NCBI RefSeq assembly: GCF_056746865.1
Contig: NZ_CM163382.1
Length of the DNA: 64,000 bases
Reading direction: 5' to 3' (one strand)
Shown here: positions 13,009-59,775 of the stretch, piece after piece
Numbering within the stretch: position 1 is the first letter of the stretch
How the letters are laid out: each line of letters opens with the position of its first letter
Notes under the pieces: generated by a model
Databases searched by the model: none
What the model was told of the DNA's origin: nothing
What the model saw: the letters and a program-made list of their open reading frames with translations, nothing else
Program-made: the position numbers and the translations under genes

Positions 13009-13370
13009 AACAACCTCTCTTATAATTATGGGTATTCTACGGAAACAATATACCGTGGTGAAGCTAATTTACTCGATTGCTGCGATGACTACCTCCGGGG
13101 GACAAACCTTATGTAAATACTATGGTCCTGCGGTGATGATTTGTATGTGATACACAGCAACATTTCGAGATATTCATACGGCATCTAATACTGATTTAAT
13201 TCTGGTTAAAATACAGACAGATAACAAGATGAATATTCTTAATGTTTACGTTAAAAATGTTTAATATTATTTAATAGTTGTTAATTTGAATACTTCGATA
13301 ATGTTATATTTCCTGATAATCATTTGCAGGCAAAATGTTTTCACTCTTAAATGAGTATTTATTCTCATAA

Positions 13371-13745
<375 letters not shown>

Positions 13746-42288: not shown

Positions 42289-42373
42289 AGTATTATCCTC
42301 TGTATTATGTGTTATAGGCGCTTTACTCAAAAAAAAGCCGACTCTTAAAGTCGGCTTTAATTATTTTTATTCT

Positions 42374-48822: not shown

Positions 48823-51066
48823 TCAGGCACTTTCGCGAATGGGTTCGATTTCATTCAGCGTATCAATTAACGGTTGCGGCTTACCAATAAGATAACCCTG
48901 CATATAATCGATCCCCAAAGAGAGCACCGCCTCGCGGATCTCTTCGTTTTCAACGTACTCTGCCACTACCCGCATTTTCTTCATTCGCGCCAGGTGGCAA
49001 ATCGACGCCACTATCTGATAATCCAGACTATTTGACACAATATTGCGGATAAAACTGCCGTCAATTTTAAGCAAATCGGCATTCACATTTTTAAGCCGCG
49101 CATAGCTGGCGTAGCCGGTGCCGAAATCATCAATCGCAATCTGGCAGCCTAATTCCTGAAGATGCTGCAAGGTGATTTGCGCCTGCTTAACATTGGTCAG
49201 AGCATTACTTTCGGTGACTTCAAAAATAAGTTGCCACGCTTCAATTTGATATTTAGCCAGCAGCTGACTGACTTCAACGGGAAAACGAGCCTGACATACC
49301 GAGGTTGGCGACAGATTAATCGCAAAACGGTGAGCGGGCATCTTCGCTCTGTTTTCAGCCATAAATTGCAGCGTATGCTCAATGACCCACATGTCGATAC
49401 TCGACGATAAACCAAATTCGTGCGCGACCGGCAAGAAGCTGTCGGGGCTGATCAGTTCATCATTCTCACCTTTCATGCGCAGAAGAATTTCATGGTAGAC
49501 ATCGCCACGCATACCGGTAATCAGCTGGGCCATCAGGAAAAAATGGTTGTGTTCCAGCGCCTGCTGTAGCCGATTCATCATCGCGACTTTATCTTTCAAT
49601 TCGCGTTGCAAATACATTGCCCCGCGACGCTGCATATTTTCCGGGGCGTTGGTCACGATGGAAAGCTCGGCGACCGTATTTAGCTCTCCCAGCAGCAGGT
49701 AGATATGATTCACTGGCGAGCGCACATAGCAGTAACTGACGCCAATCTGCGGTTGCATCGGCATTCCATCCCAAAAGAAACGAAATTGCTTGAGATGGCT
49801 ATCCAGTTCGGTAATGCGCTCCTGGTGCGATTCTGTATTCAGTCGCAGCGCGAGATCGTTACCCGAAAGCTGATAAACATCCTCACCCGGTTCCAGCAAG
49901 GGTGACAGCCAGTGAGAAAGTTTTTGCTTGTATTGAATCCGCAGCATGATGCCATAGTTCTTAACCAGCATTTCCATGCCAGGGATGCGTAAATAACAAA
50001 GCGCAGACCAGGGGGCATCACGCAACGCGCGATTCAGGGCGCGAACATTTGGCAGATGAACCACCGGGTCCACATACGCAAGCCGCTGAATGCGTCTGAC
50101 TACCGCTCTCTGACGGGTTGCCAGTACAGCCATATAATTGACAATAAAAGAGAATACCAGATAACTGGAGGAGGTTATGGTCAGCTGCGTGGTATAGCCA
50201 GGATAAATGGGAATGTAATTTTGATAGCTGTGGATGCTGATCATCAACACGACCGCCCAGAGCAGCGAAATCAGCTTATAACCATAGCGCATCGCTCCCC
50301 ACATCATCAGGGGCAGCAATAATGACAAGGTATAGTTGGTGCTAAAAATTGTGCTTTTTTCATTTAACGGCATGCATAACAGCAGCAGTAAAGCACCTAA
50401 TGCCAGTAGCCAGAGTGCGAACTCTTTTTTGGTGACTTTGACATCAACCTGCTGTTTTAATTGCGAATAATAACTACGTAAATAAAACGGATTTCGCACT
50501 ACACGAATGATGAAGTAGCACAGCGGGACACCAATCAGATTGCCCACCAGTAAGGCCTGATAATTGATTAAGGTCCCGAGGTTAAAAGGCATGACGCCGA
50601 CCAGATTTTCTCTGCTCGCCAGTAATCCTACAAACGCAGCAAACTGGAAAAGTATCAGAAACAGCGTTGCAGGAAACACAATCTGCCAGAATATACGCTG
50701 GGAAATTAAACGTGTATCACCATGTGAAACGTTGTTACGCCGGGGAGTAAAGACCCTGTAACCGCCCCAACAGAGAATGATAATGATAATAAAATTAGCC
50801 GTTAATGAGAGCGTTTCGTAAAAACCCAGCTCTGCATATTTGCGGACAAAAATCCCTAAGGCGATCCCTGGCAATGCCGCCCAGCTGAAAAACATCATCA
50901 TGCTGATCATCAGAGCCAGAGGCAGATAAAAGAGAAAAACCTCACCGGAAGAAATATGCGCGAAAGTATTAATGTGGGCGAAAATGGGCAAGATTAAAGA
51001 AGGCAGGAACAGCGGAAGCCCCCACCATTTATCACGTATTTTTATATAAGTTGCATTCAGTTTCAT
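48823..51066 (-). CDS. pdeF: cyclic-di-GMP phosphodiesterase PdeF (YfgF; membrane-anchored degenerate GGDEF plus EAL)
   Basis: 747-aa ORF; N-terminal multi-TM region, C-terminal EAL domain (EVTESNAL, DDFGTGYA motifs). Confidence 0.9.
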   Translation of the reverse strand: MKLNATYIKIRDKWWGLPLFLPSLILPIFAHINTFAHISSGEVFLFYLPLALMISMMMFFSWAALPGIALGIFVRKYAELGFYETLSLTANFIIIIILCWGGYRVFTPRRNNVSHGDTRLISQRIFWQIVFPATLFLILFQFAAFVGLLASRENLVGVMPFNLGTLINYQALLVGNLIGVPLCYFIIRVVRNPFYLRSYYSQLKQQVDVKVTKKEFALWLLALGALLLLLCMPLNEKSTIFSTNYTLSLLLPLMMWGAMRYGYKLISLLWAVVLMISIHSYQNYIPIYPGYTTQLTITSSSYLVFSFIVNYMAVLATRQRAVVRRIQRLAYVDPVVHLPNVRALNRALRDAPWSALCYLRIPGMEMLVKNYGIMLRIQYKQKLSHWLSPLLEPGEDVYQLSGNDLALRLNTESHQERITELDSHLKQFRFFWDGMPMQPQIGVSYCYVRSPVNHIYLLLGELNTVAELSIVTNAPENMQRRGAMYLQRELKDKVAMMNRLQQALEHNHFFLMAQLITGMRGDVYHEILLRMKGENDELISPDSFLPVAHEFGLSSSIDMWVIEHTLQFMAENRAKMPAHRFAINLSPTSVCQARFPVEVSQLLAKYQIEAWQLIFEVTESNALTNVKQAQITLQHLQELGCQIAIDDFGTGYASYARLKNVNADLLKIDGSFIRNIVSNSLDYQIVASICHLARMKKMRVVAEYVENEEIREAVLSLGIDYMQGYLIGKPQPLIDTLNEIEPIRESA

Positions 51067-51417
51067 AGATGCTCAGCAGAATCCCCCACATCCTGAAGGA
51101 GGTGTATTCAGACAGGCATCCCACCTGACTTCGAATGATGATTATTCATCACTATAGAGAGCATTGATTCTAAGTGTCATATGAAAGTTCCAATTGATAT
51201 ATATCAAACAAAATAACCCTGATTAATGAATTATTACGTTTATCATGTTAATTCATCATTATTACATCATCATTGTAAATAATTAAATTAACTTCCATAA
51301 CATTAAAATATGTATCCACTGACGCTTTTTTACATAACGAAGAATTGACCATTTTGTCCTGTTGTGCCTTAATGTAAGTACCGTCCACAGCGTGGGACAT
51401 ACTTCAAGGAACCTTTT

Positions 51418-51609
51418 GTGAGTCAGGCAACCAGTATGCGAAAACGACACCGATTTAACAGTCGCATGACCCGTATCGTACTGCTCATCAGCTTTATCTT
51501 CTTCTTTGGCCGTTTTATCTACTCGTCCGTCGGTGCATGGCAGCACCATCAGAGCAAAAAAGAAGCTCAGCAATCCACACTCTCCGTCGAATCACCGGTA
51601 CAACGTTAG
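51418..51609 (+). CDS. yfgG: small membrane protein YfgG
   Basis: 63-aa ORF with basic N-terminus and one TM helix (IVLLISFIFFFGRFIYSSV); in K-12 position after pdeF. Confidence 0.8.
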   Translation: MSQATSMRKRHRFNSRMTRIVLLISFIFFFGRFIYSSVGAWQHHQSKKEAQQSTLSVESPVQR

Positions 51610-51919
51610 CGGTTACCTTCTCCACTTTCACAGAACATAACGGCACCTCGCTGTCGGATGCTTTTGCTCTTTGGGATTATCAAAGCGGCAGATATTCTTT
51701 CATCTTAAATTTTACGTCTTTGTCCTGACTGATGTTTTTCCTGTTTGGCTGCGAAATAAATATAAAATTAATACATATATTTTAATGATGTATTTTTATA
51801 AATTATTTCCCACATGAATTTTAATAAATTTAATCTATTCCTTTATACGCAATACATTTACTTTCCTCTTTTGATGATCTTAAATGTCTTATTTTTCGTA
51901 ATGTGTATAACAAGGAATA

Positions 51920-52438
51920 GTGATGAAATTTAAAAAATGTCTTCTGCCTGTGGCAACGTTAGCGTCATTCACTCTGGCAGGATGCCAGTCAAATGCTGAT
52001 GATCATGCCGCCGATGTTTATCAAACCGATCAACTGAATACCAAACAAGAAACTAAAACCGTTAATATTATTTCCATTCTTCCCGCAAAAGTTGCCGTAG
52101 ACAACTCCCAAAATAAACGAAACGCACAAGCCTTCGGCGCGCTTATTGGTGCAGTCGCTGGCGGTGTTATTGGCCACAACGTCGGGTCTGGCAGCAATTC
52201 CGGAACGACGGCAGGTGCAGTTGGCGGCGGAGCTGTTGGCGCGGCAGCGGGTTCTATGGTGAATGATAAAACCTTAGTGGAAGGTGTTTCTTTAACGTAT
52301 AAGGAAGGCACCAAAGTGTATACCTCCACCCAGGTGGGTAAAGAGTGCCAGTTTACGACAGGTTTAGCCGTTGTTATTACCACGACGTATAACGAAACGC
52401 GTATTCAGCCAAATACGAAATGTCCTGAAAAGAGCTAA
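51920..52438 (+). CDS. yfgH: outer-membrane lipoprotein YfgH (glycine-zipper family)
   Basis: 172-aa ORF; lipobox LAGC; glycine-zipper segment (GALIGAVAGGVIGHNVGSG...). Confidence 0.9.
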   Translation: MMKFKKCLLPVATLASFTLAGCQSNADDHAADVYQTDQLNTKQETKTVNIISILPAKVAVDNSQNKRNAQAFGALIGAVAGGVIGHNVGSGSNSGTTAGAVGGGAVGAAAGSMVNDKTLVEGVSLTYKEGTKVYTSTQVGKECQFTTGLAVVITTTYNETRIQPNTKCPEKS

Positions 52439-52453
52439 TGATCAGGAGGAGTC

Positions 52454-52993
52454 ATGAAGAAAGTTTTTCTTTGCGCCATCTTAGCCTCCTTAAGCTATCC
52501 GGCTATCGCCTCATCATTGCAGGATCAACTCTCTGCTGTCGCAGAAGCGGAACAGCAAGGTAAAAATGAAGAGCAAAGGCAGCATGACGAATGGATCGCG
52601 GAGCGCAACAGGGAAATCCAGCAAGAGAAGCAACGTCGCGCAAACGCCCAGGCCGCCGCTAACAAAAGAGCGGCAACGGCAGCGGCAAATAAGAAAGCTC
52701 GTCAGGATAAACTGGATGCCGAAGCCACTGCGGACAAAAAACGCGATCAAAGTTATGAAGATGAGCTACGCAGCTTAGAGATTCAGAAACAAAAACTGGC
52801 GCTGGCGAAAGAAGAAGCCCGCGTTAAGCGCGAAAACGAATTTATCGATCAGGAACTGAAGCACAAAGCTGCGCAAACCGATGTGGTGCAATCTGAAGCT
52901 GACGCAAACAGGAATATGACTGAGGGCGGTCGCGATCTGATGAAAAGCGTGGGCAAAGCAGAAGAGAACAAATCGGACAGCTGGTTTAACTAA
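52454..52993 (+). CDS. yfgI: periplasmic coiled-coil protein YfgI
   Basis: 179-aa ORF with signal peptide and highly charged coiled-coil body; length matches YfgI. Confidence 0.9.
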   Translation: MKKVFLCAILASLSYPAIASSLQDQLSAVAEAEQQGKNEEQRQHDEWIAERNREIQQEKQRRANAQAAANKRAATAAANKKARQDKLDAEATADKKRDQSYEDELRSLEIQKQKLALAKEEARVKRENEFIDQELKHKAAQTDVVQSEADANRNMTEGGRDLMKSVGKAEENKSDSWFN

Positions 52994-53073: not shown

Positions 53074-53164
53074 TAGACTGGCCCCCTGAATCTCCAGACA
53101 ACCAATATCACTTAAATAAGTGATAGTCTTAATACTAGTTTTTAGACTAGTCATTGGAGAGCAG

Positions 53165-53530
53165 ATGATTGATGTCTTAGGACCGGAGAAACGCAGACGG
53201 CGTACTACACAGGAAAAGATCGCTATTGTTCAGCAGAGTTTTGAACCGGGAATGACGGTCTCCCTTGTTGCCCGGCAACACGGTGTGGCAGCCAGCCAGT
53301 TATTTCTCTGGCGCAAGCAATACCAGGAGGGAAGTCTTACTGCTGTGGCCGCAGGAGAGCAGGTCGTTCCTGCCTCTGAACTTGCTGCTGCCATGAAGCA
53401 GATTAAAGAACTCCAGCGCCTGCTCGGCAAAAAAACGATGGAAAATGAACTCCTTAAAGAAGCCGTTGAATACGGGCGTGCAAAAAAGTGGATAGCGCAC
53501 GCGCCCTTATTGCCCGGGGATGGGGAGTAA
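53165..53530 (+). CDS. insC: IS2 transposase OrfA (InsC; HTH DNA-binding component)
   Basis: ORF 53120-53530; start placed at ATG 53165 ([24 protein letters not shown]...), 121 aa. Confidence 0.9.
53482..53488 (+). other. IS2 programmed -1 ribosomal frameshift slippery site (A6G) in the insC/insD overlap
   Basis: AAAAAAG heptamer inside the 43-nt overlap of insC and insD; IS3-family OrfAB fusions are made by -1 frameshifting at such sites. Confidence 0.6.
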
Positions 53531-54393
53531 GCTTAGTCAGCCGTTGTCTCCGGGTGTCGCGTGCGCAGTTGCACGTCATTCTCAGACGAACCGATGACTG
53601 GAAAGATGGTCGCCGCAGCCGTCACTCAGATGATACGGATGTGCTTCTCCGTATACACCATGTTATCGGAGAGCTGCCCACGTATGGTTATCGTCGGGTA
53701 TGGGCGCTGCTTCGCAGACAGGCCGAACTTGATGGTATGCCTGCGATCAATGCCAAACGTGTTTACCGGATCATGCGCCAGAATGCGCTGTTGCTTGAGC
53801 GAAAAACCGCTGTACCGCCATCGAAACGGGCACATACTGGCAAAGTGGCCGTGAAAGAAAGCAATCAACGATGGTGCTCTGACGGGTTCGAGTTCCGCTG
53901 TGATAACGGAGAAAAACTGCGAGTCACGTTCGCGCTGGACTGCTGTGACCGTGAGGCACTGCACTGGGCAGTCACTACGGGCGGCTTCGACAGTGAAACA
54001 GTACAGGACGTAATGCTGGGAGCGGTGGAACGCCGCTTCGGCAACGAGCTTCCGGCGTCTCCAGTAGAGTGGCTGACGGATAATGGTTCATGCTACCGGG
54101 CTAATGAAACACGGCAGTTTGCCCGGATGTTGGGGCTTGAACCGAAGAACACGGCGGTGCGGAGTCCGGAGAGTAACGGCATAGCAGAGAGCTTCGTGAA
54201 AACGATAAAGCGTGACTACATCAGTATCATGCCTAAACCAGACGGGTTAACGGCAGCAAAGAACCTTGCAGAGGCGTTCGAGCATTATAACGAATGGCAT
54301 CCGCATAGTGCACTGGGTTATCGCTCGCCACGGGAATATCTACGGCAGCGGGCCAGTAATGGGTTAAGTGATAACAGGTGTCTGGAAATATAG
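53488..54393 (+). CDS. insD: IS2 transposase OrfB (InsD; DDE integrase-like catalytic component)
   Basis: 301-aa ORF ([23 protein letters not shown]...); rve-type integrase core. Confidence 0.9.
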
Positions 54394-54404
54394 GGGCAAA
54401 TCCA

Positions 54405-54409
54405 TGCGC
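54405..54409. repeat. IS2 target-site duplication, right copy (TGCGC)
   Basis: TGCGC immediately right of the IS2 right end. Confidence 0.8.
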
Positions 54410-54476
54410 CTATAAGGCTCTCTTACCAGCCGCGCCCTAACAGGCGCACACGATCTGACATTTGCATCCAACTTCG

Positions 54477-54935
54477 TTACTTACGGCCCGTAAACGGGCT
54501 GCCCGGATAGGGAATCGATAACTGCTCTCCCATTTTATCCTCTTCAAGCTGGTGCTTTATGTAATCCTGTATCTTCGCCGTGTTCTTACCCACTGTATCG
54601 ACGTAGTACCCTCTGCACCAGAACTCCCTGTTCCTGTATTTGAATTTCAAATCACCAAACTGCTCGTAAAGCATCAGACTGCTTTTCCCTTTCAGATATC
54701 CCATAAACCCGGATACGCTCATTTTAGGCGGGATCTCCACAAGCATATGGATATGATCTGCACAGCATTCAGCTTCCAGAATCCGTACGCTTTTCCACTC
54801 ACACAGCTTTCTCAAAATACTGCCTATTGCTCTACGCTTCTCTCTGTAGAACACCTGTCTTCGGTATTTTGGCGCAAAAACTATGTGATATTTACAGTTC
54901 CATCGGGTGTGCGCTAAGCTCTTTTCGTTCCCCAT
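54477..54935 (-). CDS. tnpA: IS200 transposase TnpA (Y1/HuH single-strand transposase)
   Basis: ORF 54477-54986; start placed at ATG 54935 preceded by GGGGG (MGNEKSLAHTRWNCKYHIVFAPKYRRQVFY...), 152 aa; HuH motif (HIHMLV) and catalytic Tyr region. Confidence 0.9.
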   Translation of the reverse strand: MGNEKSLAHTRWNCKYHIVFAPKYRRQVFYREKRRAIGSILRKLCEWKSVRILEAECCADHIHMLVEIPPKMSVSGFMGYLKGKSSLMLYEQFGDLKFKYRNREFWCRGYYVDTVGKNTAKIQDYIKHQLEEDKMGEQLSIPYPGSPFTGRK

Positions 54936-54940
54936 TGGGA

Positions 54941-55010
54941 CCCCCTTTTGATTTCTTGTTTGACACTTGCAGTTGCCAGACCGCAAGGTGTTTTAACAAA
55001 TCAAAAGGGG
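54941..55010 (-). promoter_or_regulatory. IS200 5'-UTR stem-loop that sequesters the tnpA ribosome-binding site
   Basis: CCCCTTTTGATTT (54941-54953) and AAATCAAAAGGGG (54998-55010) are exact reverse complements; the arm next to the ATG contains the Shine-Dalgarno sequence. Confidence 0.6.
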
Positions 55011-55045
55011 TTTTAATAACTGGCTCAAAGCTGAAAGCTTTCCGG

Positions 55046-55068
55046 AACCCCCAGCCTAGCTGGGGGTT
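55046..55068. other. IS200 left-end hairpin (palindrome near the element end)
   Basis: aaCCCCCAGC-cta-GCTGGGGGtt, 23 nt, about 10 bp inside the inferred IS200 left boundary. Confidence 0.5.
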
Positions 55069-55074
55069 TTCTGT

Positions 55075-55108
55075 GCACAAAAAACCCTCTGTAGTAACAG
55101 AGGGTTTT
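55075..55108 (-). terminator. rho-independent terminator of the prophage lysis cassette (minus strand)
   Basis: Minus strand reads AAAACCCTCTG-ttacta-CAGAGGGTTTTTTGTG: 11-bp stem plus T6, 127 bp downstream of the Rz stop and abutting the IS200 end. Confidence 0.6.
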
Positions 55109-55234
55109 GTTCATTCATAGTGCAGGGTCAAATCATTCCCACTCAATTGTTTACGACAATCATAACCAATTGAGTGATAACATTTTTCCAAAACTTAATT
55201 TTTCTAGTACCGTTTTATATACCGTCACCGGAAA

Positions 55235-55732
55235 TCAGTGCCACGATTTTTGCTTCTTCAGTGAATCGTATTGCTGTTCGCAGGATTCTCCTGCAATCCG
55301 ATACTTTTCAGCCTCAGCTGCTGTTGCGTTGTAAACTCGATTGCTTTCTTCAAGCATGTCGGCGAGCACACCGATGACCTTGCTGGCTGGCGTGCCAGTG
55401 GGGAAAGATCCGGTATAGTGTTCGGCGAGTCGCTTGGTTTTGTCAAGCTCGGCGCGCAGGCTGTCAGCAGCGGCATTAGCATGCTCAGCATCAACACGCG
55501 CCACATCGATACGGGATTGTGCTTCACGTTCAATTTGTGTTTTCTCCTGATCACGTTGTGACCTGGCCTTATCATCAGCCTGTTTCTGATCTTCCTGTGC
55601 CTGCGCATACCCGGCATCGTACTGGCGACTGCCGTGTATATTCCAGGCAACCACTCCGACGGTAAACAGAGCAGCAAGAATCACCACGATAAGCAGTTGT
55701 TTCCAATATGCTTTTACGAATGCCCAGATCAT
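55235..55732 (-). CDS. prophage i-spanin (Rz-like inner-membrane spanin)
   Basis: 165-aa ORF with one N-terminal TM helix then a charged coiled-coil body; start overlaps the endolysin stop (ATGA); last gene of the lysis cassette. Confidence 0.7.
55258..55506 (-). CDS. prophage o-spanin (Rz1-like outer-membrane lipoprotein) embedded in the +1 frame of the Rz-like gene
   Basis: ORF 55258-55677 in an alternate frame inside Rz; from ATG 55506 it encodes [17 protein letters not shown]... with lipobox LTA-C followed by a proline-rich short mature region; start codon choice tentative. Confidence 0.6.
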   Translation of the reverse strand: MWRVLMLSMLMPLLTACAPSLTKPSDSPNTIPDLSPLARQPARSSVCSPTCLKKAIEFTTQQQLRLKSIGLQENPANSNTIH

Positions 55733-56358
55733 ATAGCCAGCACCTTACTGGCAGTGACGTACCGCGCGCGCCGGTCGTCGATGCCGTTCCGGCCACCATT
55801 GATAATCAGAGTTACACGTGCAATATCACCGGTATACTTCATGCATCCTTTGCTGGCAAAGAACCACGCCGCGCTACGAGCCGCGTATTCGTCCTGCGCC
55901 AGCAGTTCAGGATTCTCCAGCAAGTCCACTTTCAAGCCGTTTCCGCAGTCACGATAGTTATTCAAACCGGTAATCTGGATAAGTCCGCGACCTCGGTAAT
56001 TCCAGCCATCGCCGGGGGCATTGTTCCCCATGCGTTTGCTGTACACCAGATTGGCAATCGCTCTCTGGCGCTCAGGTGGCAATGGTGGTTCACCAGCACG
56101 GCGCCCCAATGCGTTGGCCTGTCCCTGAGTGAGACGCCCAGCCCGAACGAAGTTAGCCAGTCCGCTGACGCTGTAGTTGAAATTTTCCTGCAACCGGGTG
56201 AAACCTCCAGACTCATGCCCGACCTGAGCAATAAACATTGCCTGATCTTCTGGTTTGCTGATACCAAACTCTTTCATCGCAGAAGTTATATGCGAGAACC
56301 AGCGTGCGGCAAGCGCCTCGCTAATACCAGCAGCTCGCTGGAATTGTTTAATCTCCAT
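55729..56358 (-). CDS. prophage endolysin, glycoside hydrolase family 19 (chitinase-like lysozyme)
   Basis: ORF 55729-56523; start placed at ATG 56358 preceded by GAGGT ([21 protein letters not shown]...), 209 aa; GH19/COG3179-like motifs ([21 protein letters not shown]). Confidence 0.8.
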
Positions 56359-56656
56359 GTTTAGACCTCGATACTTTGAAAATTTGAACGACGTTACCGC
56401 GCGTTTTAATAACCGCAGCGAGCATGACAGCGTTGATAATGACCTCAGATAAATCCACAGCCATTGGCGTGCGGAACCAGATTGCATAGGCAACACGAAC
56501 CGGAATACTGGCCGCAGCAACAATCAGGAAATAAGCAAGCCACCCCCCCCATCTTCGATGTTGAGATCCGTTACGCCGGAATGTGACAACACGAATTGCT
56601 ATGCCAGTACAAATAACTGCATTGGTGATAAGTAAAAACAGGTCATGCGTTACCAT
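56348..56656 (-). CDS. small membrane protein in lysis cassette (putative holin or antiholin, 2-3 TM)
   Basis: 102-aa hydrophobic ORF directly upstream of the endolysin gene and overlapping it by 11 nt; function assigned by position only. Confidence 0.5.
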
Positions 56657-57059
56657 CGTCTTTTCTCCCCGGAATTAACTCGCGTGGATTATCGGAACGG
56701 TGATAGAGCCAGATACCAATTCGCACTGCGACAATTGCTGATACGAATGCGCCAGCAGAGAAAACAATCCCTTTCTCGAACGAGTCCTGCGTGATGGTAG
56801 GGATCAGGCTGGCTATGCCGATAAGAATTGATGCTGCTGGTTTGTAAAAAAGAAGGCCGCAGAGAAAGCTAAGCATCGACAAAAGCACACGACGACGAAT
56901 GGGATACTCTACCGCAGAGGTAACAAAAATTACCGCTCCAGCCAAAGACCCCAAAGCAACCTCGGGAGGAACTCCTGCTATCACCGCCGCCAGAGAAGTC
57001 ATGCTAAGCCACTGATTCAAAGAATCACTGGTTGTCTGAATTGACATGATAAACACCAT
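56643..57059 (-). CDS. putative holin (multi-TM small membrane protein), first gene of lysis cassette
   Basis: 138-aa ORF with 3-4 predicted TM segments and a basic C-terminal tail; two Met codons within the first five (M1, M5); overlaps the next gene by 14 nt. Confidence 0.55.
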   Translation of the reverse strand: MVFIMSIQTTSDSLNQWLSMTSLAAVIAGVPPEVALGSLAGAVIFVTSAVEYPIRRRVLLSMLSFLCGLLFYKPAASILIGIASLIPTITQDSFEKGIVFSAGAFVSAIVAVRIGIWLYHRSDNPRELIPGRKDDGNA

Positions 57060-57187
57060 TTATTTCACATAAACAACTCCATTAAATAAATGTTTATCAT
57101 ACACAATAAACCATTTATGGATAATTATTACTCGTGATTTTTATGATTATTCGCGCATTTTTCTATCATTTTTATCCAGTGTGCCGT

Positions 57188-57211
57188 AAAACCACGTCCT
57201 TAAGGGCGTGG
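57188..57211 (-). terminator. hairpin terminator downstream of the tail fiber gene
   Basis: Minus strand: CCACGCCC-ttaa-GGACGTGG followed by TTTTAC; about 160 bp after the tail fiber stop. Confidence 0.5.
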
Positions 57212-57236
57212 ATGATGTCAACTGATGATGTCAACT
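57211..57236. repeat. perfect tandem direct repeat 2 x 13 bp (GATGATGTCAACT) in the tail fiber - holin intergenic region
   Basis: gatgatgtcaact gatgatgtcaact read directly from the sequence at 57211-57223 and 57224-57236. Confidence 0.7.
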
Positions 57237-57372
57237 ATTGGCTGGCTTTGACTGATATTGCAGGAGTTGTTGGATAAGATTTAAGTGACCGTCAAAGCGG
57301 TCACTTATGAGAAAAGGAAGTTAGACAAAGTGGCAAACAGGCTCATTGATGGCTACGTCAATGACCAAGGTT

Positions 57373-59775
57373 TCATTCAGACTCCAGCAACTCTATCCTG
57401 GCGAGAAGCGCTTCATATTTATCAAGTAATCGAGAGTAGTTCCTTCGTTGCATTGCAGCTTCCATTACCAACATTTCTTCATAACGAATGCCGTAACGGG
57501 AACCAGCTTCTATAGCAGGAGTGATTACCTCACCGGTTTCATCATCTATGACGGCAGGAGTGTCACCCCATTCATCATAACAGATGAAACCAAAGCGATG
57601 AGCATCAAGACCATGCCTTTCGAATGCCTCCACGTACCGTTGAGCAATGGCGCCGAAGTGCCAGCGGGCGCCATCAGCGCCTTTTTCTTTAATCCTATCC
57701 AGATACTTATACTGGACTAGCTGAACCTCTTCTGCGGCATCGAGAATGGCATCAGTCATTAGTAATGGGTCTGATTTGCAAATGGCATCTGACGTGATAG
57801 TGAACGCCGTTTGAGTGAATCCACCAGACCACGGAAACGAACTTGCCCCGCAAGGATAGGTATTTGCCGTGGCAGGACGTATTTGCTTCACAGCAAATAC
57901 GTGCGACGTCATTTCTGCTGTACCAGAACCCGTAACGCCGGGATCTCCACCAGAGACACGTAAAATCCCTGTAGGGACAGATGAGTCCGTCGATGAATAA
58001 AAGCGAATCTGCTGTGCTTCTGCAACACCAGGGTTACATAGCTTAATAGCTTTAGTTGTGAACGCATTAGTATCCGTATCAAATATCCAGTATCTGTTGT
58101 TTGAACCACCATCTATAATAACGTTCGCAAGAGATACACCAACTCGCTGTATATTAGAAATATTGTTAGCATTAGTACCAGCAGTTAACTGAATACCCCT
58201 TGTGCAATTATTTACACGCGAGTTACTAATAGTATTATTAGCAGCAAATCTAGTGCCAGCGGTATTTCCTGTCAGGAGAGTATGCGTAGTGTCCTTACTG
58301 AAGCCTGTCAATAACACCTCATTATTAGTGAACGTACCGTACTGAGCACATGATTTAAAACCGATATAAGGTGTGGTTAAATCCTCAGGAATACCATTCC
58401 ATACCATACAAAAGTTATCTGTAATTACACTATGGTTTCCTCCATTGTTAGACAAATCACCCAACTCTACAGCACTTATGGAAGTATTGAAGTGGTTATT
58501 TGTAACCTGGAACAGGTTACCAACATTGTTTTCAGAAACAACTCCGCGGCGACCAGCAATGATATGGTTACCGAAAACCACAACACCTTCGGTATCGTCA
58601 TGCGCGTACATGAAGGTGTCGAAGTTCTGATAAGAACCATTGACAATATTGATATTCTTTGTTGAGTACAGGTCGAATATTTTACCCATTCGATATGCTG
58701 GTACAGATGTTCCTCCACCAGTTACGTTAACGCCGTCAAATACACACTGACCAGCTCTGCTTAGCTTAAAGACAGTATCAAAAGAGGATTGAGTACCAGC
58801 ATCATTTGACACATCCAGGTCACGAACGATAAGTTGTCGGGCGTATTCGATTCCCCCTGTCCCTAAAAACGTAAGCGCAGTACCCTGAAGTTGCCCGGTA
58901 GCTTTTATCGTGAAATTACGTAAACCAACAGGTTTTCTTACTACAGTCGTACCCGAGTTATCAATGATAAGACCATATCCAGCAGCAAATTTTATTCCGC
59001 ATGTAGCCATGCTTACGCCAAAAACATCACTATAAAAATTAGTTACTGAGATGTCGCTTGAGCAGTTGTATATACGACGAAGCTTAATATCTAGACCAGT
59101 TTCCTTTGCTGCAGTAAAGGCATTGATCAGTGCCAAGGTATCATCAGCATCACCTCCAACAGCGCCAAAATCCTCAGGAGTGAGTGATTCCCTCATTTTA
59201 TCCTGGAACGTTCGGTATACTGCCCCATAACCATACTGAATAAACCAACCAAAACCACCAACAACCCCGGCGATTGCAGCATCGACATAATTACGCATTG
59301 AGCGATTATTTACAGCGTCCTGCTCAAGTGATGGATCTGCAAGGTTAGAAATTCTGTTTTGCTTTGCATCGTAATATTTTGCAAGCAAAGATGGTTTCAT
59401 CAATGCACGTCTGAACCACCCAAAACATTGCTGGATCAGCATCGTCAGGTAGTCAAAGGCATCTTCATGCACTTCGGGAAAAAACTTTCCCTGATTGCGA
59501 AGGTCTGTCTCCTGTACTACATCAAGCACACGATCTATCGTAATTCGCCATCCAGTAGCAAGCGGAGACGGAAGAACCACAGAACCGCCACTATAAGTGC
59601 CCGCCCCAGTTACCGTATAACCGGTATCCAGAACCAATTCTGTTACGTTCCCGTTCAGGTCAGACACCTGAACAACCAGGTCTGATTTTCTGAAAATTCG
59701 AAAAGTATACGGAAACGATGTCGTAACGCCGTTACCTGTGTATTCGTTGTGGTCAACTTCGGTTGAGACCGTCAT
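57373..59775 (-). CDS. prophage tail fiber/tailspike (N-terminal virion-attachment domain, central beta-helix-like domain, C-terminal intramolecular chaperone domain)
   Basis: 800-aa ORF preceded by GGAG; N-terminus has the tail-fiber motif ...NRISNLADPSLEQDAVN... (compare T7 gp17 RIVNLANAVDDRDAV); middle is Gly/Asn/Thr-rich repeat typical of beta-helix tailspikes; C-terminal ~130 aa resemble S74-type chaperone domains. Confidence 0.8.
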   Translation of the reverse strand: MTVSTEVDHNEYTGNGVTTSFPYTFRIFRKSDLVVQVSDLNGNVTELVLDTGYTVTGAGTYSGGSVVLPSPLATGWRITIDRVLDVVQETDLRNQGKFFPEVHEDAFDYLTMLIQQCFGWFRRALMKPSLLAKYYDAKQNRISNLADPSLEQDAVNNRSMRNYVDAAIAGVVGGFGWFIQYGYGAVYRTFQDKMRESLTPEDFGAVGGDADDTLALINAFTAAKETGLDIKLRRIYNCSSDISVTNFYSDVFGVSMATCGIKFAAGYGLIIDNSGTTVVRKPVGLRNFTIKATGQLQGTALTFLGTGGIEYARQLIVRDLDVSNDAGTQSSFDTVFKLSRAGQCVFDGVNVTGGGTSVPAYRMGKIFDLYSTKNINIVNGSYQNFDTFMYAHDDTEGVVVFGNHIIAGRRGVVSENNVGNLFQVTNNHFNTSISAVELGDLSNNGGNHSVITDNFCMVWNGIPEDLTTPYIGFKSCAQYGTFTNNEVLLTGFSKDTTHTLLTGNTAGTRFAANNTISNSRVNNCTRGIQLTAGTNANNISNIQRVGVSLANVIIDGGSNNRYWIFDTDTNAFTTKAIKLCNPGVAEAQQIRFYSSTDSSVPTGILRVSGGDPGVTGSGTAEMTSHVFAVKQIRPATANTYPCGASSFPWSGGFTQTAFTITSDAICKSDPLLMTDAILDAAEEVQLVQYKYLDRIKEKGADGARWHFGAIAQRYVEAFERHGLDAHRFGFICYDEWGDTPAVIDDETGEVITPAIEAGSRYGIRYEEMLVMEAAMQRRNYSRLLDKYEALLARIELLESE

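Follow-up and report, generated by a model that had tools for sequence, protein, structure and literature searches.

Two AT-rich intergenic gaps beside yfgG in Escherichia coli are probably regulatory regions of different kinds

Leaders controlled by CsrA, such as those of glgC, pgaA, ycdT (dgcT) and ydeH (dgcZ), present GGA motifs in hairpin loops, and a CsrA dimer can bridge sites that lie ~10-63 nt apart; in repressed targets, a site overlapping the Shine-Dalgarno (SD) sequence or the start codon is typical. c-di-GMP metabolism is a theme known to be under CsrA control, with the GGDEF genes ycdT/dgcT and ydeH/dgcZ among the examples. Among the E. coli promoters activated by FNR, that of pdeF (yfgF) belongs to Class II: an FNR site at -41.5 accompanies anaerobic, FNR-dependent expression (PMC3718329, which credits the description of the promoter to Lacey, Partridge and Green 2010), an expression pattern likewise reported in PMC4207228 and PMC5635695. 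The promoter islands bound by H-NS (bgl, proU and the spacers of Shimada et al. 2014) are AT-rich and TpA-rich, and Rho terminators located in long untranslated 3’ regions serve to insulate units from each other (Adams et al. 2021, PMC7815308).

Here we analysed the pdeF-yfgG-yfgHI locus, found in 5422 of 5426 complete E. coli genomes, within a 64-kb window (i.e., the whole stretch of DNA under analysis). The gene at its centre, yfgG, encodes a nickel/cobalt tolerance protein whose phenotype is documented in PMC6338753, and is intact in 83 of 83 loci, with no stops or frameshifts. The original prediction described the gaps on either side of yfgG as much more AT-rich than their surroundings and full of A/T tracts, and proposed that they are H-NS-bound, curved regulatory DNA that may hide small RNAs or small proteins. 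The compositional part of this description held up well. Gap 1, between pdeF and yfgG (51067-51417, 351 bp), has a GC content of 0.342 and gap 2, between yfgG and yfgH (51610-51919, 310 bp), one of 0.303, compared with 0.512 for the window; given a standard deviation of 0.051 over 300-bp windows, both lie 3-4 standard deviations under the window mean. A 200-bp sliding scan fell below 0.34 at four places in the 64 kb (~13.1 kb, gap 1, gap 2 and, weakly, ~57.0 kb), so the two gaps are among only three or four AT islands of the window. Elsewhere in the window, intergenic gaps of 60 bp or more (n = 22) have a mean GC of 0.434 (standard deviation 0.077), and among the ~22 intergenic gaps of the window gap 2 ranks lowest and gap 1 fourth lowest; by these ranks, the two are AT-rich even for intergenic DNA, yet no extreme outliers. 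A-tracts are likewise numerous, at 31-35 per kb vs 12 per kb in coding DNA, and the string quoted in the prediction, ttaatgatgtatttttataaattatttcc, is located at 51784-51812. Gap 2 diverges from K-12 by 4.2%, vs 0.3% for gap 1.

We consider it likely, with considerable confidence, that both gaps are ordinary but different regulatory intergenic regions of this locus, and that their AT-richness reflects the composition of promoters and upstream elements together with weakly constrained, probably silenced DNA, and not hidden genes. The predicted regulatory character is right for both gaps: gap 1 holds two divergent promoters, and gap 2 a termination zone and the segment preceding yfgH (Table 1). 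Known elements account for the gaps, namely the characterised FNR promoter, the yfgG promoter and the Rho region, both already catalogued, and a reported in-vitro H-NS site; to these the analysis adds two testable leads, a pair of CsrA-like hairpins in the leader of pdeF and a spacer of locked length separating the divergent promoters. What was established here is the anatomy of the locus, its conservation, the FNR site and the distribution of the genes; the FNR dependence, the mapped 3’ end of the RNA, termination by Rho and H-NS binding in vitro are taken from the literature.

Table 1. Features of the two gaps and their flanking genes, in coordinates of the window.
Feature	Position	Strand	Basis and remarks
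pdeF (yfgF)	48823-51066	-	gene call confirmed
pdeF 5’ untranslated leader	51067-51159	-	~93 nt, from the predicted start to the ATG at 51066
Leader hairpin 2	51083-51102	-	CCUCC / UUCAGGAUGU / GGGGG, GGA in loop; minimum-free-energy fold
Leader hairpin 1	51111-51129	-	GUCAGG / UGGGAUG / CCUGUC, GGA in loop; alignment
pdeF -10 hexamer	51167-51172	-	TAGAAT, read from sequence; called the -10 element in PMC3718329
FNR box	51194-51207	.	TTGAT-ATAT-ATCAA, TTGATATATATCAA; perfect consensus palindrome TTGAT-N4-ATCAA, centre 51200.5
AT-rich spacer between divergent promoters	51208-51344	.	sequence poorly conserved, length fixed
50-aa PGAP ‘hypothetical protein’ WP_000017552.1	51248-51400	-	judged no gene
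Palindrome ACAT-N6-ATGT	51300-51313		family consensus, in AT-rich spacer; consensus profile
T-rich block	51326-51336		just 5’ of yfgG -35; consensus/information profile
yfgG promoter	51345-51373	+	-35 TTGACC 51345-51350, TG 51365-51366, -10 CTTAAT 51368-51373; 17-bp spacing
Stem-loop at yfgG mRNA 5’ end	51383-51398	+	GUCCAC/GUGGGAC; GCCC/GGGU in other genera
yfgG	51418-51609	+	63 aa, DUF2633; Pfam PF11119, E = 3.6e-28
yfgG 3’ UTR	51610-51701	+	stem-loop 51663-51692, then AUAUUCUUUC; mapped RNA 3’ end 51701
Lineage-specific AT-rich zone	51702-51855	+	Rho-dependent termination of read-through; peak 51817
Hydrophobic 39-aa ORF	51814-51933	+	stop in locus L004; broken in E. albertii, L006 and L033
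Conserved segment 5’ of yfgH	51856-51922	+	putative yfgHI promoter and leader; homology from 51856
yfgH start	51920 (GTG) or 51923 (ATG)	+	gene call

Overall, gap 1 carries the published pdeF promoter itself, and as a promoter it differs from that description in no respect. The order ppx-pdeF<>yfgG is kept in 80 Enterobacteriaceae loci, in which gap 1 has a median length of 351 bp, and the blocks conserved within it fall on the FNR box, the -10 element of pdeF, and the -35 and extended -10 elements of yfgG. Both half-sites of the FNR box are at least 95% conserved among 79 distinct sequences, and the pdeF hexamer is kept as TANAAT across genera. The centre of the box lies 28.5 bp from the near edge of this hexamer (51172) and 33.5 bp from its far edge (51167), which would place the pdeF transcription start at ~51159 and the box over the -35 region, in line with the published -41.5 geometry. 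As published, FNR bound to this box under anaerobiosis switches on leftward transcription of pdeF from a Class II promoter.

On the opposite strand, every element of the yfgG promoter is at least 90% conserved, and the same promoter has been predicted in PMC3946193. Coordinate mapping puts the yfgG transcription start at ~51380-51381, 7 nt past CTTAAT, and the start at 2627275 (old coordinates) given in a sigma-S ChIP-seq paper, which also reports a peak over the pdeF/yfgG spacer, corresponds to 51380/51381 of the window. The TTGACC-17-CTTAAT promoter, with its upstream TG, probably starts a rightward mRNA of ~320 nt at ~51380. Between the two promoters, the AT-rich spacer is held to a nearly constant length across genera: in 70 of 78 loci, 140-144 bp separate the centre of the FNR box from the yfgG -35 element, an observation that is modestly new and that goes beyond a simple picture of two promoters plus filler, which does not explain it. 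Neither the fixed distance nor the hairpins of the pdeF leader are mentioned in the accounts of the yfgF/pdeF promoter in the literature searched. The palindrome and the conserved blocks of the spacer were compared by eye with the consensuses for Zur, MntR, NsrR, TyrR, CpxR and OmpR, none of which matched convincingly, and consensus searches found no ArcA box or IHF site in either gap. Taken as a whole, gap 1 is an ancient, vertically inherited divergent control region, in which the AT-rich core is upstream DNA common to both promoters; because H-NS binds there in vitro, the core is likely to be a platform for modulation by nucleoid proteins.

The second gap is of a different nature, with a fast-evolving termination zone, and is the junction of the conserved yfgG with the accessory yfgHI pair. 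It exists only where yfgHI follows yfgG, which in the loci compared is the case only in Escherichia and in one Pseudocitrobacter metagenome-assembled genome (MAG), and the interval between yfgG and guaA varies between 62 bp and over 3 kb. In all eight loci that bear yfgHI the GC content of the gap is 0.28-0.31 and only its last 65-70 nt are conserved; the E. coli and E. albertii sequences cannot be aligned over 51702-51855, and 51856-51922 is the only part that E. coli shares with E. albertii and with the Pseudocitrobacter copy. Transcripts of yfgG end at the stem-loop and U-rich site of the 3’ UTR, where Term-seq recorded a 3’ end at K-12 2629573(+), with the coordinate conversion checked, under each of three growth conditions (PMC7815308). 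Rho halts read-through beyond this point within the AT-rich, untranslated stretch: the Rho termination region at K-12 2629689(+), which equals window position 51817, has a Rho score of 8.5 (p = 1e-48), and the reads upstream and downstream of it change from 331/40 in untreated cells to 649/667 with bicyclomycin (PMC7815308). The arrangement resembles the catalogued Rho terminators (PMC7815308) in its bicyclomycin-sensitive read-through, in the stable 3’ end at the upstream stem-loop of yfgG, and in part also in a stretch after yfgG that is longer than 200 nt, untranslated, poorly structured and locally richer in C than in G; the 310 nt of the gap contain no conserved ORF. Unlike those terminators, the zone is unusually AT-rich (GC ~0.24-0.30), and its C-richness is limited to ~51770-51870 (the C/G ratio is 1.35 over the gap, 3.75 in 51770-51869 and ~1 in 51650-51830; the 99th percentile of the window, in 200-nt windows, is 1.77).

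The last ~65 bases of gap 2, which travel with yfgHI and include the SD sequence AAGGA of yfgH (51912-51916), look like a dedicated promoter and leader, and it is from this conservation that we infer the position of the yfgHI promoter. A consensus scan of the plus strand of the gap detected nothing resembling a sigma-70 promoter; on this result the expression of yfgHI might rely mainly on read-through, or on a promoter that needs an activator. The same scan missed the real yfgG promoter and, for promoters and terminators alike, performed no better than on shuffles. A hairpin at 51641-51656 that it flagged does not match the mapped 3’ end and was set aside. Gap 2 and yfgHI together are an accessory insertion at a variable site, set off from yfgG by the zone of Rho-dependent termination.

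An alternative view of both gaps, which we regard as possible but as the less probable account, is that they are chiefly H-NS nucleation sites on curved, xenogeneic-type DNA that silences the flanking genes. Gap 2 adjoins patchily distributed genes and serves as a Rho termination zone, and such zones often coincide with H-NS-silenced DNA; yfgHI has low read counts in LB, and an IS5 insertion at window position 51170 was selected under gallium stress, insertions of this kind often relieving silencing at other loci. A genomic-SELEX H-NS site, together with one for the RpoD holoenzyme, has been placed in vitro within the pdeF/yfgG spacer (PMC3946193), and ypfM/yffB, the other AT island of the window, is flagged likewise. 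Of the H-NS binding originally predicted for both gaps, it is the part concerning this spacer that the SELEX data sustain; binding of gap 2 is plausible from its composition, from the patchy phylogenetic distribution of its neighbours and from Rho-dependent termination, and H-NS action in vivo is likewise something that we infer. The DNA resembles the H-NS promoter islands in being AT-rich, TpA-rich and located at promoters; the in-vitro H-NS site of gap 1 coincides with an RNA polymerase holoenzyme site, and gap 2 lies next to accessory genes and to the zone where Rho terminates transcription. However, gap 1 is ancient core DNA, conserved in 80 of 80 loci and not horizontally acquired; its family-wide vertical inheritance and the strong purifying selection on its promoter elements argue that it is not xenogeneic. 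Moreover, yfgG is clearly expressed: its Term-seq counts reach the thousands under every condition. The predicted curvature found no support either: the helical phasing of the A-tracts, estimated as power at 9.5-11.5 bp relative to shuffles (a proxy and not a full curvature model), was not above chance in gap 1 (p ~0.10) or gap 2 (p ~0.34). The high-affinity H-NS 10-mer TCGATAAATT, allowing up to two mismatches, was not enriched (74 matches vs 61 ± 8 expected, none of them in gap 1), a motif scan that says little about binding itself.

The suggestion that the gaps hide genes was not supported, with no credible Rfam match, no conserved ORF, no Pfam match and no additional 3’ ends. We consider it improbable that a small regulatory RNA is encoded here, whether as an independent gene within a gap or as a product of the yfgG 3’ UTR. 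This 92-nt UTR closes with a stem-loop and a tail rich in U, its strong 3’ end is independent of condition and classed as ‘orphan’, and a further 3’ end internal to yfgG appears at 51552 in minimal medium (Term-seq, PMC7815308); but the UTR cannot be aligned even with E. albertii, its fold is no better than that of shuffles (z = -1.05), and no sign of a separate promoter or of processing was seen. Nor did Rfam models reach any family’s gathering score, and permissive thresholds over 50500-52500 returned only noise (eukaryotic snoRNA and lncRNA models, E = 0.6-7). Across the whole interval, on both strands, Term-seq 3’ ends number only two, both on the plus strand and both belonging to yfgG, with no other end in either gap; these data are aerobic, and could miss transcripts made only under anaerobiosis or metal stress. 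An unannotated small protein, for instance from the 50-aa minus-strand or the 39-aa plus-strand ORF, seems to us less probable still, and very unlikely in absolute terms. Such ORFs do exist, PGAP annotates the 50-aa one, and the 39-aa product is hydrophobic, as are many small membrane proteins; however, every candidate has stops or frameshifts in relatives, none has a Pfam family, and none is found in the curated MG1655 annotation. WP_000017552.1 is annotated in the majority of RefSeq E. coli genomes, whereas the curated record of MG1655 does not have it; its frame is shifted in Escherichia sp. E1V33, and stops break it in Citrobacter, Salmonella and the majority of other genera. The ORF lies in antisense orientation across the promoter and transcription start of yfgG, its conserved bases are those of the yfgG promoter read on the other strand, and no minus-strand RNA 3’ end is recorded over it, so that this protein is probably an annotation artefact. 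A 48-aa ORF was also rejected, having four stops in loci L004 and L005.

Returning to gap 1 as a divergent control region, its best conserved part, among the 79 distinct sequences, is a block of the pdeF leader at 51105-51130. Hairpin 1, which lies in this block, is nearly invariant in sequence across genera; 80% of the alignment cells of its stem are paired without covariation, which neither supports nor refutes the stem. For hairpin 2, situated ~27 nt 5’ of the pdeF AUG, RNAalifold on MAFFT leader alignments gave only 3 pairs because indels misalign the hairpin, and we therefore replaced this approach with a hairpin search in each sequence, controlled by shuffling. A GGA-loop hairpin of this type is present in 59 of 73 distinct leaders, vs 7.0 ± 2.4 in dinucleotide shuffles, and its equivalents have 40 distinct stem sequences. 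In these 59 leaders the two GGA motifs are spaced 23-28 nt apart (median 26), and the distance from the second GGA to the AUG is 25-29 nt. An alternative pairing of the conserved GGAUGC block with GCAUCU just 5’ of the AUG, as in the E. coli fold, was discarded, its variants not being compensatory in an alignment judged by eye.

Two GGA-loop hairpins in fixed geometry, resembling CsrA sites, are a modestly new feature of the pdeF leader. As in the CsrA-regulated leaders, two GGA motifs are borne on loops (each as part of RGGAUG in E. coli), the distance between them falls in the range that a CsrA dimer bridges, and the gene belongs to c-di-GMP metabolism. Unlike repressed CsrA targets, the leader has no site over the SD or start codon: the SD region, GAGCAUCU, contains no GGA, and the nearest one is ~27 nt 5’ of the AUG. 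No link between CsrA and pdeF was found in the literature searched. The conserved hairpins probably confer post-transcriptional control. A more specific proposal, which we put forward tentatively and as an unlikely one on present evidence, is that the leader, with its hairpin geometry fixed across Enterobacteriaceae, is an unrecognised control module recruiting a CsrA dimer or another GGA-reader, and that the 140-144 bp spacer is a fixed nucleoprotein architecture coupling the two promoters. If so, CsrA (or another GGA-reading factor) would set the translation or stability of the anaerobic c-di-GMP phosphodiesterase PdeF, adding a Csr input over that of FNR and tying the Csr system to anaerobic c-di-GMP turnover. 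The mRNA starting from the opposite promoter also has a small element of structure at its 5’ end, where RNAalifold finds three consensus pairs in the yfgG stem-loop, one of them with a compensatory C-G to U-A change in Escherichia.

The region corresponds to the ppx-pdeF-yfgG-yfgH-yfgI neighbourhood of an Escherichia coli chromosome. A 1.2-kb query around its two gaps (gap 1, between the divergent pdeF and yfgG, and gap 2, between yfgG and yfgH) matched 5424 of 5426 complete E. coli genomes at 95–100% identity, always on the chromosome and nearly always in single copy. Positions 51067–51919 align to K-12 without gaps at 98.2% identity (window position = U00096.3 coordinate minus 2,577,872), and 13 of the 15 differences are located in gap 2. 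The gaps had been described as much more AT-rich than their neighbourhood, an observation confirmed by their GC values when set against 0.512 for the window and by 200-bp sliding windows, in which GC dropped below 0.34 at only four sites in 64 kb (~13.1 kb, both gaps and, weakly, ~57.0 kb). The annotated part of the window has 22 intergenic gaps of 60 bp or longer (mean GC 0.434, sd 0.077), of which the two rank first and fourth lowest in GC; they are AT-rich even by intergenic standards, yet no wild outliers. The 85-bp uraA/upp gap (42289–42373; GC 0.306) equals them in AT-richness.

Features of the two gaps and their surroundings (window coordinates)
Feature	Position	Strand	Remarks
pdeF (formerly yfgF), c-di-GMP phosphodiesterase	48823-51066	minus	RefSeq and curated K-12 MG1655 record
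Gap 1	51067-51417		351 bp, GC 0.342
pdeF 5' leader	51067-51159	minus	93 nt
Hairpin 2, CCUCC-UUCAGGAUGU-GGGGG in E. coli	51102..51083	minus	3' of hairpin 1
Hairpin 1, GUCAGG-UGGGAUG-CCUGUC (RNA strand)	51129..51111	minus	pdeF leader
TAGAAT	51172-51167	minus	conserved block
Perfect FNR palindrome TTGATATATATCAA	51194-51207		conserved block
50-aa hypothetical protein	51400..51248	minus	in PGAP, not in curated MG1655 record
Palindrome AACATTAAtTAATGTT	51299-51314		~73.5 bp upstream of yfgG start; family consensus
ATTGACC	51344-51350		conserved block
TG-n-CTTAAT	51365-51373		conserved block
yfgG	51418-51609	plus	RefSeq and curated K-12 MG1655 record
Gap 2	51610-51919		310 bp, GC 0.303
yfgH	51920/51923-52438	plus	RefSeq and curated K-12 MG1655 record
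yfgI	52454-52993	plus	RefSeq and curated K-12 MG1655 record
IS3-family element	53120-54393		where K-12 has guaA
IS200-type transposase	54477-54986	minus	where K-12 has guaA
Prophage lysis block (DUF2514, GH19 endolysin, holin)	55235-57059	minus	
Tail-fibre gene	57373-59775	minus	

Gap 1 is an ancient divergent control region. We fetched 80 loci that encode YfgG relatives, taking a single genome for each species; apart from a few oddly labelled or unresolved records, all are Enterobacteriaceae. In every locus with the flank present ppx and pdeF lie upstream, with pdeF divergent from yfgG. The length of the gap (median 351 bp, mostly 346–356 bp) is constant even where PdeF identity falls to 53–60%. 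Alignment of the 79 distinct gap sequences revealed conserved blocks that are regulatory elements and coincide with an FNR box and both divergent promoters, bearing out the proposal of regulatory DNA. The literature confirms these assignments: the FNR box is published as a Class II site at -41.5 of the pdeF promoter (PMC3718329), genomic SELEX located binding of both H-NS and the RpoD holoenzyme of RNA polymerase in this spacer, with the yfgG promoter predicted as TTGACC-17-CTTAAT (PMC3946193), and a sigma-S ChIP-seq study reports a peak over the spacer and lists a yfgG transcription start (PMC4447067). This start maps to window 51380/51381, 7 nt past CTTAAT. In E. coli, yfgG mRNA is one of the most heavily NAD-capped (~40% at stationary phase; PMC8040648), which fits an A at the start position.

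YfgG (DUF2633) contributes to nickel and cobalt tolerance (PMC6338753). An IS5 insertion at K-12 2,629,042 (window 51170), at a CTAA within the -10 region of pdeF and ~245 bp before yfgG, rose to a frequency of 0.5 under gallium selection in one population (PMC6928379) and, speculatively, would be compatible with relief of repression near yfgG or up-regulation of this metal-tolerance gene. Antisense to pdeF and inside it, a Rho termination region at K-12 2626899(+) (window 49027; Rho score 8.8; Adams et al. 2021) implies antisense transcription from the ppx side.

The most conserved block of gap 1 (51105–51130) is no promoter element and lies inside the pdeF leader, which carries two GGA-loop hairpins. 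The sequence of hairpin 1 is conserved, and covariation neither supports nor contradicts its stem. The shape of hairpin 2 is maintained although the stem sequence varies (for example ACCCU/AGGGU, UGCCUC/GAGGCA, AGCC/GGCU and UCCUUCA/UGAAGGA): 70 leaders have 40 different stems between them, and the loop contains GGA every time. Hairpins of four or more base pairs, three or more of them G-C, with a GGA-containing loop were found in 59 of 73 distinct leaders, against 7.0 ± 2.4 in dinucleotide shuffles. Spacing across Enterobacteriaceae is tight, at 23–28 nt between the two GGA motifs and 25–29 nt from the second GGA to the AUG. Two GGA-loop hairpins spaced in this way resemble CsrA binding sites, although in the leader no GGA overlaps the Shine-Dalgarno sequence. 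CsrA is known to control other c-di-GMP genes (cited in PMC5635695), and our literature search found no published CsrA-pdeF link. By analogy, we infer that the hairpins are candidate CsrA-like sites, a modest new lead.

The truly AT-rich core of gap 1 (51208–51344, GC ~0.25) is the spacer that runs from the FNR box to the yfgG -35, and its sequence is the least conserved portion of the gap. The distance from the FNR-box centre to the -35 is nevertheless 140–144 bp in 70 of 78 loci. The family consensus of the spacer retains a few short blocks, among them a palindrome, which matched no known regulator motif, and a T-rich stretch directly adjacent to the -35; neither an ArcA nor an IHF consensus occurs there. 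The constant length might reflect a fixed nucleoprotein architecture, and the length-locked spacer is likewise a modest new lead.

Gap 2, on the other hand, is a lineage-specific junction. Among the fetched loci, only those of Escherichia and of one Pseudocitrobacter MAG have yfgH and yfgI (yfgHI) after yfgG; in the others yfgG is followed by guaA or different cargo, and the distance from yfgG to guaA varies between 62 bp and >3 kb. This patchy distribution agrees with a report that S. Typhi has yfgHI orthologues under SdiA regulation and S. Typhimurium has none, those of E. coli not being SdiA-regulated (PMC11619404). In all eight yfgHI-bearing loci gap 2 has a GC of 0.28–0.31 and its conservation is confined to the last 65–70 nt before yfgH. 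Homology of yfgG ends at its stop codon, and nucleotide homology of the yfgHI unit starts at 51856 against Pseudocitrobacter and at 51811 against E. albertii.

Between E. coli (51811–53034) and E. albertii (locus L003, 756–1983) the yfgHI unit shares ~77% nucleotide identity, and the adjoining yfgG 92–94%; in the Pseudocitrobacter MAG, protein identity is 83–85% for YfgH and YfgI, 70% for YfgG and 61% for PdeF. These contrasting identities suggest that yfgHI may have evolved fast or been acquired separately.

In Term-seq data (PMC7815308), the dominant yfgG 3' end under all three growth conditions (K-12 2629573) maps to window 51701, within AUAUUCUUUC and 9 nt past a stem-loop (51663–51692), while an ORF-internal end (K-12 2629424, window 51552) is among the minimal-medium entries. 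The same study reports a Rho termination region peaking at K-12 2629689 (window 51817; Rho score 8.5, p = 1e-48), with upstream/downstream reads of 331/40 untreated versus 649/667 with bicyclomycin. Because of the 3' end, the Rho region and the conservation pattern, gap 2 resolves into a yfgG 3' UTR, a Rho-dependent stop between yfgG and yfgHI, and a short conserved segment before yfgH. A consensus scan of its plus strand detected no sigma-70-like promoter upstream of yfgH. In this strain, 53120–59775 holds inserted elements where K-12 has guaA directly after yfgI, which points to the yfgG-guaA interval as an insertion hotspot.

The suggestion that the gaps hide small RNAs or small proteins found no support in either. 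An Rfam search of the gap region returned only noise, and the curated 3'-end tables list nothing in K-12 2628800–2629899 beyond the two plus-strand yfgG ends. No candidate small ORF of either gap matched Pfam and, unlike the yfgG ORF (intact in 83 of 83 loci), these are broken: the 50-aa PGAP ORF, antisense across the yfgG promoter and start, has a frameshift in Escherichia sp. E1V33 and is interrupted by stop codons in most other genera, and the two plus-strand ORFs of gap 2 (39 and 48 aa) are disrupted even within Escherichia.

As for H-NS-bound, curved DNA, the binding stands in vitro for gap 1, by genomic SELEX (PMC3946193); the H-NS 10-mer is not enriched, and neither gap shows significant phasing of its A-tracts. 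The original prediction was partly right, in that regulatory DNA and in vitro H-NS binding hold and curvature, small RNAs and small proteins are unsupported; the main features of both gaps had been described or catalogued before. It is plausible that gap 2 and yfgHI are silenced, since the gap is AT-rich, adjoins accessory genes and is Rho-terminated, and yfgHI yields few reads. An H-NS genomic-SELEX site is likewise listed for the window's other strong AT island, the divergent ypfM-yffB spacer (13009–13388; 380 bp, GC 0.311; PMC3946193).
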